From: Candidatus Aenigmatarchaeota archaeon
GTDB taxonomy: Archaea > Aenigmatarchaeota > Aenigmatarchaeia > Aenigmatarchaeales > Aenigmatarchaeaceae
NCBI GenBank assembly: GCA_043802485.1
Contig: JAZDKZ010000001.1
Span: 75,257-139,256 of the forward strand
DNA: 64,000 nt
Direction: 5' to 3'
Numbering within the stretch: position 1 is the stretch's first letter; every line of letters starts with the position of its first letter. This document shows positions 52,294 through 53,787 of this stretch, piece by piece. The notes under the pieces were generated by a model. The model was given only the letters and a program-made list of their open reading frames with translations, was not told the origin of the DNA and did not search any database. Position numbers and translations under genes: made by a program.

Positions 52294-52383
52294 TCAGCGG
52301 GCCATGATCTTTATTATGTCCCCATTCTTCAGCTCATAGTCTGCGGAAACCCTTTTCTTCGTCCTTGCGTCAACAGCGCCGAT
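52294..52383 (-). pseudogene. Orphan duplicate of the last 29 codons of ychF (displaced 3' end)
   Basis: [29 protein letters not shown] versus ych[30 protein letters not shown]. Confidence 0.9.
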
Positions 52384-53787
52384 GATAATTACAACTATAG
52401 ACAGTGAATAAATTATTTGTATCCGAATGTTACAATAAAGAACAAGATGAAATTTAATCTTCTTAGCCTCCATAATCCTGCCATAGATAAAGCCCCGATC
52501 ACGGATAACTCTTAACGGAAAGAATTTAGCAAAAATAATCGACCGTATGATAGATGATGTTTGCAAAACAGAACATATAAGTAAATATATGCTTGGTATT
52601 AGAATAAGCAAGATTATCGGTTGTAATATTGATACAGTGTATAAAAGACTTTGTCACTGCAACGGATACGAATGGTATCCAATCCCTTTGATTAATGTTA
52701 TTTTGGATTTATGGAAAAATACAGGTAAAAATGAGGTAAGAGATGTAATTAAGACTATTAAACTATTAATGATGAAACTCAGTTTCTAAAAACAGGTCGT
52801 TCTTACACCTACAAAGCTGTAAAAGAAGTTTCCCCTTCTATAGCAAAATTGTGTGGTTCAATCGTAGCGGATGGCCATATTACTAATGACCGAGCTTCCA
52901 AGATAGTCATTATAGATAACTACCCGAAAGCCATTATCAAGTGTGCTAGATGGTTCAGGGAAGTTTTCGGTTTCCTACCGCGTGTTAAAAAGAGCAAAAC
53001 GTTTGATGCATGGTACTTTAGGGTAAGTAGCAAACTGGTAGCAAGAATGTTAAATGTTTTTTTCGAGATTCCCACAGGTAGAAAATCTAGTATAGTGAAA
53101 GAACCTAACTGCATTAAAGAATCACATTACAGAATAGACTTTGTTGAAGGTGTTCTGCTTATGGACGGTTGTGTAGAGACAGATAATATCATTTCCTTTG
53201 GTACGACAAGTGGAAGATTAGCTAAAGATGTCTTTGAAATCCTCAAACAAAACAATTTTTCTGTAAAGCTCTCTTACAAGCCTTCAAATAAAATATTCGT
53301 GATTAAAACAGGTGTTTTGAACAAAGAAGAAGCTAAAAAATGGACATCTGTTTTTGACAAAGATACAGAAAAAGGTAAAAAATTATATGAAATGAATTTT
53401 GGTTTCAGTGAAAGGGCGAGAAGTTTAAAAGAAGTTATAGAAGCCTTTGATTATTTCTACTCATACGGAAATTCTTATAAAATAAGCTTTAAAGAAGTGA
53501 TCTTTGCAATAAAAAGGTTAGAAAAAACTAGCAAGAAAGTTTTGGCTTCAGAATTACATATCAAGATAAGTACATTATACAAATACCTATGTCTGTTAGA
53601 AAAGGCTAAAATAATAAAAGTTAAGAGAACATATCATGGTTCACATATAGAAAACGAATATGCTTATAATCCGAATATGGAGGATTGGAGAGTTCCTTCA
53701 ACGGGTTAAAATTTTTATAATATCATTATTCTTCAAGACATAGTCTTCTCCGATCCTCTTGCCGGTTCTTGCGTCTATGGCACCTAT
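52384..53787. mobile_element. Putative free-standing homing-endonuclease element carrying a replacement ychF 3' end
   Basis: AT-rich segment bounded by two versions of the ychF tail and containing a LAGLIDADG gene; the boundary inside ychF is approximate. Confidence 0.7.
52447..53709 (+). pseudogene. Double-motif LAGLIDADG homing endonuclease with C-terminal wHTH, frameshifted in the 5' part
   Basis: AKLCGSIVADG and DFVEGVLLMDG motifs in ORF 52849-53709; ORF 52547-52789 joins it in frame if the ACTATTAA duplication (52754-52769) is removed. Confidence 0.8.

Follow-up and report, generated by a model that had tools for sequence, protein, structure and literature searches.

The window, by which we mean the whole 64,000-nucleotide stretch of Candidatus Aenigmatarchaeota DNA analyzed here, carries an intact ychF gene on its reverse strand (53698..54825). 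According to the ORF list and Pfam, the 375-residue product is a YGR210-type Obg-like GTPase with MMR_HSR1, YGR210-like_G4 (E 5e-38) and TGS (E 3e-15) matches, and its length is similar to that of YchF in relatives. The last 29 codons and the stop codon of ychF are present twice. The active copy occupies 53698..53789 (92 nt, reverse strand); an orphan native copy, consisting of TC, 29 codons and a stop, lies on the same strand at 52294..52385 with no upstream reading frame. A free-standing LAGLIDADG homing-endonuclease gene is located between the two on the forward strand (52447..53709), and its reading frames and alignment to the gene of G001, a genome of the same genus as the window's own genome (G000), identify the window copy as a pseudogene. 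This antisense ORF ends at 53709 and overlaps the end of ychF (53698) by 12 nt. The short segment from the orphan to the endonuclease start codon (52386..52446) is unlike ychF and is identical at 57/60 nucleotides between G000 and G001; it presumably functions as the leader or promoter of the endonuclease gene. Beyond the orphan lies a block of three genes (49194..52254), comprising MNT (51718-52254, reverse strand; Pfam NTP_transf_2 plus HTH), HEPN (51315-51743, reverse strand) and an S8 peptidase (49194-51305, forward strand), the latter two named from reading the sequence without Pfam support.

The duplicated tails (52294-52383 and 53698-53787, both reverse strand) share 20/29 residues and 59/90 nucleotides with the stop codon included. 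Identities at codon positions 1, 2 and 3 are 21/29, 24/29 and 11/29, respectively, and thus most of the differences fall at third positions. GC3 is 19/29 for the orphan, compared with 12/29 for the active tail. Homology of the orphan begins two bases earlier than these codons, at the TC of a Phe codon, giving a repeat of 92 nt with a period of 1404 nt (53789 to 52386). The DNA between the tails is 1314 nt long and contains 32.3% GC, compared with 43.6% for the window as a whole. These values, including the 12-nt overlap, reproduce every count in the original prediction, which had described a duplicated 29-codon tail with many synonymous differences around an AT-rich segment of about 1.3 kb. 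A whole-genome tblastn search with ychF recovered the orphan at E = 4e-6, and a flank-against-flank search returned the tail duplication at E = 1e-10; the duplication is therefore not due to chance. The RNA library X5 yielded one 172-nt contig over 53758-53929 with zero differences, for which DNA carry-over is possible, and none over the orphan, where contigs cannot show absence.

The window derives from a metagenome-assembled genome and contigs of run X3 break at 52473-52480 and 52748-53014, both of which would fit an assembly chimera of two strains. Against this, two other public runs each contain a contig (X1 record 3, 51908-53929; X2 record 14, 52094-54519) that spans the entire structure of orphan, endonuclease gene and active tail, and four other assemblies contain the same tail–endonuclease–orphan architecture. 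We therefore do not regard the structure as a misassembly, and give a strain chimera a negligible chance.

The bridging contigs also date the decay of the endonuclease gene. In the window, 2 nt are missing from an A-run after 52488 and 8 nt are tandemly duplicated at 52754-52761. The X1/X2 strain, 99.5% identical to the window (11 differences in 2016 nt), lacks both lesions, with an additional AA at 52488 and no extra 8 nt at 52754. The window's copy of the gene has thus been inactivated recently. Five ychF loci carrying the endonuclease gene are now known, and the gene is intact in four of them, encoding for example 418 residues in G001 and 419 residues in the metagenome locus L069. The G001 protein contains two LAGLIDADG motifs (...LCGAIVADGH and ...GVLLMDGC), which are both kept in the window; each has an acidic residue (xxADG and xxMDG), and G135, A139, D140 and G141 are invariant among 34 aligned relatives. 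Pfam LAGLIDADG_3 recognized the G001 protein at 26.1 bits against a cut-off of 22.5, and the truncated window ORF scored 19.2 bits, under that cut-off. The AF2 model of the endonuclease (pLDDT 93.6, pTM 0.91) was matched by Foldseek to I-Tsp061I, I-DmoI, PI-PfuI and intein endonucleases with E values from 1.6e-8 to 7e-6, and superimposed on I-DmoI and I-Tsp061I with TM scores of 0.66-0.68. Sixty PDB chains matched at E <= 0.001, and the best 30 of the 60 are all LAGLIDADG enzymes or maturases. The predicted structure is that of a single-chain, two-motif LAGLIDADG fold, a pseudo-symmetric alpha-beta-beta-alpha-beta-beta-alpha arrangement occurring twice.

The protein extends beyond the core by about 120 residues at the N-terminus and about 100 at the C-terminus, and the AF2 helices suggest that these extensions are HTH-like and winged-helix-like, respectively. 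A TFIIE_alpha-like Pfam match (E 5.5e-4 for the window ORF and 7.7e-3 for the G001 protein) is below the curated cut-off in both cases. The endonuclease gene is not borne by an intron or an intein, because it is antisense to ychF, ychF is one open frame without intein blocks, and the 51500-55000 region gave no Rfam match at E <= 1.

Comparison with genomes of the same genus (G001, G002 and G003) identified the cassette-free state. G002 ychF is endonuclease-free and ends in an orphan-type tail, directly followed by the same intergenic DNA as that 3' of the window orphan and by the MNT-HEPN genes, as had been predicted for an empty allele. G003 ychF is also empty and has an orphan-type tail. The best matches of the window orphan are the native tails of four endonuclease-free relatives (G002, G013, G018 and G040; 24/29 each). 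In a comparison of the kind suggested with the original prediction, orphan tails group with native tails and active tails with those of other cassettes. An alternative origin of the orphan is the rest of a deleted ychF paralogue, or a tandem duplication unrelated to the endonuclease gene, and the open frame and stop codon retained in the orphan would be compatible with either. A single ychF was found in G003 and in 34 of the 53 matching genomes (61 searched), while the second match in G002 is a tail fragment and most second matches elsewhere are weak and partial. The G000 orphan sits exactly at the position of the native G002 tail with the same downstream DNA, and orphans recur beside the endonuclease gene in five loci. 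These data render a relic of a second ychF exceedingly improbable. Misassembly and a deleted paralogue, two of the alternatives raised in the original prediction, are thus contradicted by the bridging contigs and by G002 synteny.

The foreign portion of ychF extends well beyond the duplicated tail. Informative-site patterns flip at CDS nucleotide 894, corresponding to codon 298 (Fisher p = 2e-22): sites with the species-tree pattern number 80 to the left and 1 to the right (80/81 in the body), and sites with the cassette pattern number 13 and 42, respectively. The switch from native to foreign sequence is located between 53909 and 53931, inside the IAVYPV motif. Low GC3 (10-12/29, against 219/346 for the ychF body) sets in near codon 290, far ahead of the 29-codon duplication. 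On the basis of the body tree and the informative sites, codons 1-298 (CDS nt 1-894, 53932..54825, reverse strand) are vertically inherited, and the following 77 or so codons containing the TGS domain (CDS nt 895-1128, 53698..53931, reverse strand) are the foreign, cassette-borne part.

Identities and trees support this division. For YchF residues 1-290, G000 matches G003 at 238/290 and G001 matches G002 at 261/290, compared with 217/290 between G000 and G001; for residues 300-345, G000 and G001 share 41/46 and G002 and G003 share 40/46. In the body tree, G003 is the partner of G000, and G002 that of G001 (98 each). In the TGS tree, G000, G001 and the L069 active tail form one clade (96/91), and the branches concerned split off G002 and G003; the AU test does not reject a grouping of the TGS regions of all five cassettes in a single clade (p 0.45). 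At the nucleotide level, G000 and G001 are 72% identical in the body (643/894), 84% in the foreign ychF part (197/234), 85% in the endonuclease region (1066/1255) and about 40% beyond the orphan. The ychF body therefore belongs with genus-mates, and the TGS part with other cassettes. With an identity of only about 85% between the G000 and G001 cassettes, the transfers are not recent, and their common left boundary may go back to a single ancient event followed by recombination of the bodies instead of repeated homing.

These comparisons support replacement of the last 77 or so codons of ychF, that is, the whole TGS domain, by a homing-endonuclease cassette, with the native 29-codon tail left as an orphan. 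The idea of a C-terminal swap that displaces the native tail is hence upheld, with an extent of about 77 codons in place of 29. The active 3' end, originally taken to be recoded, is best described from its sequence relationships as a divergent TGS domain of foreign descent rather than a synonymously recoded host tail. Duplicated gene ends are also typical of integrative elements, as with the att-like copies left in tRNA genes, and in G029 an IS-type transposase adjoins a related endonuclease gene. Site-specific insertion by an integrase or transposase is nevertheless very unlikely here: the 1.4-kb insert contains no integrase or transposase ORF, its repeats are 65% identical and not near-identical as att sites are, and site-specific integration does not yield a foreign segment that, as here, reaches about 48 codons past the upstream end of the repeat.

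Searches for related loci extended the comparison across families. A close (E < 1e-100) ychF-linked endonuclease was present in only 3 of 371 sampled genomes of the phylum, a point against the homing reading. Searching genome contigs with the endonuclease returned only G001's own record and one irrelevant bacterial match, and metagenome contigs provided two loci, L069 and L070. The five filled loci fall into three junction classes with orphans of 29 codons (G000 and G001), about 60 codons (L069) and 20 codons (G223 and L070). L069 combines its long orphan with an intact endonuclease gene and a cassette-type active tail. The 20-codon orphans match the tail of G224, an empty genus-mate, at 17/20 residues for G223 (also 82% identical over 56 nt) and 13/20 for L070, and argS synteny is the same. 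The TGS domains of G223 and G224 are only 48-55% identical, compared with 70-75% between G224 and other genera. Thus, G002, G003 and G224 all provide empty alleles that end in the orphan-type tail. An in-frame inserted C-terminus with a native C-terminus downstream was found in 5/5 ychF-linked loci, and the endonuclease gene overlaps the stop region of its host gene by 4-17 nt. In both host families with a readable left boundary, the conserved VYPV motif is the place of the switch. The cleavage site originally placed near KKF|IGA is not supported as a general one, as it corresponds to the right-hand junction of one class only; the others are about 60 or 20 codons from the gene end.

The suggested search of DPANN genomes for endonuclease genes flanked by duplicated gene ends was productive in part. 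L069, G223 and L070 were added to G000 and G001, and a flank-against-flank tblastn screen of 30 endonuclease loci was positive for 2 (G000 and G001). This screen is insensitive, because it missed the 20-codon orphan of G223 that was later found against the genus-mate, and it says little on the other 27 loci. No nreA orphan was found beside the related endonuclease gene in G029. Contigs of X1, X2, X3 and the RNA run X5 contained no record of a ychF body joined directly to the orphan. Rare variants are lost from contigs, and the empty allele may still be present in the same populations. A PVAD motif was considered as an endonuclease-linked immunity signature and rejected because PVAD is native to family f29, empty alleles included.

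The MNT-HEPN-S8 block is possible cargo at the same ychF 3' site. It is 72-95% identical in nucleotides to the G002 block, compared with 63-77% for the ychF body. In G002 another native ychF tail, of 47 codons, flanks the block and no endonuclease gene is present there, indicating that a tail duplication at the ychF site is possible without a resident endonuclease. G000 as the donor of the G002 block is unsupported, since the active G002 tail is closer to the G001 orphan (81/93 nt) than to the G000 orphan (63/93). A promoter and terminator scan gave matches at or below shuffle expectation; its models are of bacterial type and not applicable to archaea.

Taken together, we consider it very probable that a mobile cassette, composed of a foreign copy of the ychF TGS region and a convergent, 12-nt-overlapping free-standing LAGLIDADG gene, rebuilds ychF by homing. 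The enzyme would cut cassette-free ychF alleles within the 3' quarter of the gene, and a cassette-bearing allele would then serve as the template for repair of the break. The left crossover would fall in the conserved stretch encoding IAVYPV at the border of the G domain and the TGS domain, and the right end would rejoin in the native tail. It follows from such a crossover and rejoining that ychF would be rebuilt with the divergent, presumably uncuttable TGS domain of the cassette and that the rest of the native tail would be stranded downstream. The orphan may provide the right-hand homology arm in later transfers. Once the cassette is fixed, its endonuclease gene would decay, and the window may represent that stage. 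The junction sequences of empty and filled alleles differ only modestly and so do not by themselves reveal that the cassette allele is immune; we infer such immunity, together with cleavage, the cut position and the homology-arm role.

The main competitor is a passive passenger, in which the LAGLIDADG gene is inactive or domesticated, for example as a DNA-binding regulator with HTH and winged-helix domains, and the TGS domain was swapped by ordinary homologous or by illegitimate recombination after DNA uptake, without a break made by the endonuclease. The extra domains of the enzyme, cleavage that is only predicted, and the endonuclease-free block in G002 favor this explanation. It does not readily explain why one gene family recurs at this gene end in two host families, always accompanied by a foreign TGS domain and a native orphan, or why the catalytic acidic residues are kept in both motifs across the aligned relatives. 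The pattern of presence, absence and decay is also that of a selfish element rather than a conserved regulator. We therefore judge a passive passenger unlikely. Filled and empty alleles and discordant descent instead support the intron-less, intein-less strategy foreseen in the original prediction, in which a homing-endonuclease element supplies a 3' substitute for ychF and displaces the original.

Intronless homing is known from phages, where T4 SegF and other Seg/Mob genes reside as free-standing genes by their targets and combine break repair, co-conversion of flanking markers and immunity by divergence of the donor's target. These phage enzymes are of the GIY-YIG or HNH type and are not known to strand a duplicate of the gene end. 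The predicted core of the ychF enzyme shares its single-chain, two-motif fold with I-DmoI, I-Tsp061I, PI-PfuI and the Tli VMA intein. Unlike the free-standing, antisense ychF enzyme, these reside in rRNA introns or inteins that are spliced out.

The closest parallel, cited as precedent in the original prediction and borne out by the literature, is the mORF gene hybrids of fungal mitochondria, described for atp6 of Allomyces macrogynus and for atp6, atp9, cox2 and nad3 of Glomus sp. (Beaudet et al. 2013, PMC3630166; Paquin et al. 1994 as cited there). According to that account, a conserved gene has a LAGLIDADG or GIY-YIG ORF inserted in its 3' part; the core of the gene continues in frame into a foreign C-terminus and the native one has been pushed downstream, as in the ychF cassette. 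The native tail groups with those of close relatives, and the inserted tail falls elsewhere. The two Glomus atp6 tails are 63.5% identical in nucleotides, compared with 65% here, and cleavage by the Allomyces mORF is cited there as shown (PMC3630166), whereas it is only predicted for the ychF enzyme. The ychF cassette further differs from the mORFs as described in being located in an archaeal chromosome rather than an organelle, in its antisense gene with a stop overlap of 4-17 nucleotides rather than one in phase or downstream on the same strand, in replacing a whole TGS domain, and in the extra DNA-binding-like domains of its enzyme. In Haloferax, a free-standing LAGLIDADG gene of a different Pfam family (LAGLIDADG_2) lies in glycosylation islands with flanks reported to lack similarity to coding genes, and the authors speculate that this gene drives transfer of the islands through gene conversion (PMC5867893). 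That gene is likewise free-standing in an archaeal chromosome and the island transfer resembles the idea of MNT-HEPN-peptidase cargo, but the account of the Haloferax element describes no gene-end replacement or orphan (PMC5867893). Gene-end replacement by a mobile endonuclease ORF is thus documented in fungal mitochondria, and the literature searched yielded no account of such replacement in the chromosome of an archaeon or a bacterium.

The ychF loci, with five filled and three empty alleles and three independent junctions, provide a concrete way for single domains to be transferred horizontally in the absence of introns and inteins, and a complete domain of a conserved GTPase is moved across family boundaries in this manner. 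They indicate that ychF can be a mosaic gene in DPANN archaea, as probably can other 'core' genes, a point of importance for phylogenies built on marker genes. The intact genes of G001, L069, G223 and L070 and the empty targets of G002, G003 and G224 constitute candidate natural pairs of endonuclease and target; the intact reading frames lie at L002:250-1503 in G001, at 870-2126 of L069 and at L040:1492-2760 in G223. A broader proposal is possible, though doubtful: widespread, undescribed LAGLIDADG cassettes in DPANN archaea would overwrite the ends of housekeeping genes and use the orphans as arms, their breaks would seed cargo such as the MNT-HEPN-S8 block, and siblings at uppS, a gene with a 19-21-nt bulge-helix-bulge mini-intron at its catalytic motif, would connect such cassettes with how archaeal mRNA introns arose. 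If so, domain replacement and the gain of islands in these reduced genomes would be driven by homing endonucleases; the cargo block and the uppS mini-introns suggest that they shape gene order and intron content in ultra-small archaea.

Two observations come from other genomes searched. The last codons of G006 ychF are cassette-like (...KILVH), and by eye count on the alignment their DNA is only about 79% like the L069 tail; cassette loss is a doubtful origin for them, as simple pop-out between the repeats would yield the opposite mosaic. A second TGS fragment in G033 lies at a contig end and is probably part of one gene split over two contigs.

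The 375-residue ychF gene (53698-54825, minus strand; Pfam MMR_HSR1, YGR210-like G4 and TGS) is accompanied on the same strand by an orphan copy of its last 29 codons at 52294-52383. This orphan and the active tail, the 3' end in use by ychF, have 20/29 residues and 59/90 nt in common, with identities at 21, 24 and 11 of 29 first, second and third codon positions, respectively; third positions are G/C in 19 of 29 orphan codons versus 12 of 29 active-tail codons. The original prediction had reported the duplicated tail from counts by hand, all of which a script reproduced exactly. 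Similarity of the orphan begins at TCATCGG, the second base of a Phe codon, and the repeat is therefore 92 nt long with a period of 1404 nt. The 1314 nt separating the two tails are 32% GC (whole window, 44%). With E values of 4e-6 in a whole-genome search and 1e-10 flank versus flank, the tail duplication is not a chance match. Nor is it an assembly artefact, because single contigs of two other public sequencing runs bridge the orphan, the endonuclease gene and the active tail.

A search for ychF in 61 related genomes returned a match in 53, and four genomes belong to the window's genus: the genome under study (G000) and its genus-mates G001, G002 and G003. The G001 allele is filled: beside the orphan tail it has an endonuclease gene that is intact and overlaps a cassette-type active tail by 12 nt. 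The endonuclease-free, or empty, allele had been predicted to end in an orphan-type tail followed by the MNT-HEPN genes; G002 has just this arrangement, with ychF followed directly by MNT, HEPN and an S8 peptidase in the same order as in the window, and the DNA 3' of the G000 orphan matches that 3' of the G002 native tail. G003 is also empty, with a tail similar to that of G002 and a different downstream gene. The G001 orphan is identical to the G002 native tail at 81/93 nt. In G000, the first 66 nt of the orphan match the G001 orphan at 56/66 versus 48/66 for the G003 native tail and the last 27 nt are unlike both, a mosaic that fits a right-hand crossover inside the orphan.

The extent of the foreign segment was read from sliding identity and from informative sites, and the two methods agree. 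Sites with the species pattern (G000+G003, G001+G002) lie left of CDS nt 894 in 80 of 81 cases and those with the cassette pattern (G000+G001 versus G002+G003) lie right of it in 42 of 55 (Fisher p 2e-22). Since nt 894 is the last species-type site and dense cassette-type sites start at nt 917, the switch falls inside the conserved IAVYPV motif at the G4/TGS border, in G000 and G001 alike. By these sites, the foreign ychF piece is about 77 codons long and comprises the entire TGS domain; the drop in GC3 begins at its start. The idea that a foreign 3' end replaced the native one thus stands, with an extent of about 77 codons rather than the 29 first proposed. Nucleotide identity between G000 and G001 is 72% in the ychF body, 84% in the foreign part, 85% in the endonuclease region, 83% in the spacer plus orphan and about 40% beyond the orphan.

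Intact copies were also found at other loci. Metagenome contig L069 encodes a 419-residue endonuclease, 63% identical to that of G001, next to a cassette-type active tail with the 12-nt overlap, and its orphan retains about 60 native-type codons, from VLPDVF. In G223, a genome of the same class and another family, and in metagenome contig L070, an endonuclease gene (product 45% identical to that of G001) converges on ychF with overlaps of 17 and 4 nt, respectively. G224, a genus-mate of G223 with the argS neighbour in common, is empty; the 20-codon orphans of G223 and L070 match its tail at 17/20 and 13/20 residues, and that of G223 is 82% identical to it over 56 nt. In the TGS region G223 and G224 are only 48-55% identical, against 70-75% between G224 and other genera, and in G223 the identity again drops directly after VVYPVAD. 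Separately, G006, which has no endonuclease gene and native ychF codons 300-345, ends in 14 residues (YILKQNDIIKILVH; L007:2560-2628) nearly identical to those of the cassette tail in L069 (23/30 across the tail); this end may be the footprint of a past cassette or a product of convergence.

Two trees confirmed the discordance between the ychF body and its TGS region. The body tree grouped G000 with G003, G001 with G002 and G223/L070 with G224; given the starred branches of this tree, the 'cassette' label must have arisen three times or more. In the TGS tree, a 97/91* branch separated the native genus- and family-mates and the L069 orphan from all five cassette TGS regions plus G042, G057, G051, G049 and G053. 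The active tails of G000, G001 and L069 formed a 96/91* clade, and a single clade of the five cassette TGS regions was not rejected (AU p 0.45).

The distance from the orphan start to the ychF end takes three values (about 60, 29 and 20 codons), while the left switch is at VYPV in each of the two host families that allow it to be read. These two observations suggest a break at or shortly past the stretch coding for VYPV, with native sequence lost to a variable extent on the right; we consider this placement about as likely as not, the alternative being that each class cuts at its own junction. Alignment of 5 filled and 14 endonuclease-free alleles revealed a common TATCCTGTTG core with divergence just after it and nothing decisive on the cut site. 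The KKF|IGA site favoured originally is just the right junction of one class.

In the window the LAGLIDADG gene (52447-53709, plus strand), whose 3' end lies 12 nt inside ychF, is a pseudogene with two lesions relative to the intact 418-codon gene of G001: an A-run after 52488 is shorter by two bases, and 8 nt are tandemly duplicated at 52754-52761. Runs X1 and X2 yielded contigs that show 11 differences from the window over 2016 nt, with the two extra A's present and the duplication absent, indicating that a near-identical strain retains an open gene and that inactivation in the window is very recent. By motif, Pfam match and predicted fold, the product belongs to the LAGLIDADG endonucleases. 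The G001 protein scores 26.1 bits against LAGLIDADG_3 (cut-off 22.5) and keeps the acidic residue in both motifs; the G/A/D/G positions of the first are invariant among 34 relatives. Its predicted structure (pLDDT 93.6, pTM 0.91) best matches the Tli VMA intein endonuclease, PI-PfuI, I-Tsp061I and I-DmoI, with TM 0.66-0.68 on the small enzymes. The core is extended by an HTH-like stretch of about 120 residues at the N-terminus and a winged-helix-like one of about 100 at the C-terminus, the latter with a weak TFIIE_alpha match. At E <= 1e-3, a search of 1.84 billion proteins gave 355 cluster representatives of the family, 39 of which reach E <= 1e-30. With the endonuclease gene on the opposite strand, ychF in one uninterrupted frame and no Rfam hit at E <= 1 over window positions 51500-55000, neither an intron nor an intein is involved.

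These comparisons show the TGS region and the endonuclease gene as one unit, present or absent at a single locus and of foreign descent, that leaves the native ychF tail behind. The enzyme would cut empty ychF alleles and the break would be repaired from a filled allele, native sequence being lost to a variable extent on the right of the break before rejoining. We consider it highly probable that the region is such a mobile cassette. With its foreign TGS region and stranded native tail beside the antisense gene and single frame, the locus supports the predicted intron-less, intein-less replacement of a gene end by an endonuclease element. The same architecture is described for gene hybrids of Glomus mitochondria by Beaudet et al. 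2013 (PMC3630166), who cite Allomyces atp6 as the first case. The free-standing LAGLIDADG genes reported in Haloferax glycosylation islands by Shalev et al. 2018 (PMC5867893) involve no gene-end replacement, unlike the ychF cassette. No paper on gene-end-swapping endonuclease cassettes in archaeal or bacterial chromosomes was found in a search that judged other matches by abstract or listing and had subscription journals outside its coverage. The ychF cassette is a mORF-type gene hybrid, differing from the known ones in its archaeal chromosome, its antisense gene and its exchange of a whole domain.

Of 371 genomes from the phylum searched with a profile, 140 contain LAGLIDADG relatives, and close members (E < 1e-100) are confined to G000, G001 and G223. 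Distant relatives lie tail-to-tail with housekeeping genes, namely nreA and genes for an SRP54-type GTPase, a helicase, a class II aminoacyl-tRNA synthetase and an RPA-like protein; overlaps or gaps at the latter four (L049, L057, L063 and L044) range from -11 to +13 nt. In G029 (L042:1480-4110), a 445-residue relative converges on nreA with an 18-nt overlap. Over the last ~60 aligned positions (last two 40-column windows), G029 NreA is 62% and 52% identical to that of its genus-mate, which in turn is 80% and 68% identical to that of another genus; no orphan nreA tail was found beside the endonuclease gene. An IS-type transposase lies upstream of the latter. Six further relatives (L052, L053, L055, L056, L058 and L059) share a strand with rpsG (S7) and the EF-2 gene, which flank them. 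In L055, L056 and L059 the open frame of EF-2 starts at the HGKTT P-loop or a few codons ahead of it, and in L052 and L053 EF-2 is additionally interrupted near the DTPGHVDF motif; this may be another 5'-end cassette or a mini-intron site.

G002 lacks an endonuclease gene at ychF, yet a native-type tail of the gene occurs there a second time, over about 47 codons (L033:2044-2187; contig C11, minus strand), 3.1 kb downstream and beyond the MNT-HEPN-S8 peptidase block. The block (window 49194-52254) is 72-95% identical in nucleotides between G000 and G002, above the 63-77% of the ychF body, and the same neighbouring gene abuts the G001 orphan and the second G002 tail; on these grounds the block resembles cargo that was inserted into the ychF tail, accompanied by a separate tail duplication. 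A 20-nt unit containing the MNT start codon occurs twice in tandem at window 52235-52273 (plus-strand ATGTTTAATTTTATGAACA) and likewise precedes the MNT gene of G002; it may be an operator for the MNT HTH.

Immediately upstream of uppS, G000 has a second LAGLIDADG gene (L032:1045-2016; contig C6, minus strand) whose 302-residue product is 32% identical to that of the window gene; in uppS, a 21-nt insert that includes TAG TAA separates ..DG from NRRWA. The same spot carries a 19-nt frameshifting insert in G123 and a 21-nt insert in G063, each beside a related endonuclease gene; the comparison covered L047:1745-1800, L048:1400-1455 and L050. The three inserts fold alike (helix, bulge, 4-bp helix, AAA bulge, hairpin) with compensatory changes, and the insert looks like a bulge-helix-bulge mini-intron in an mRNA.
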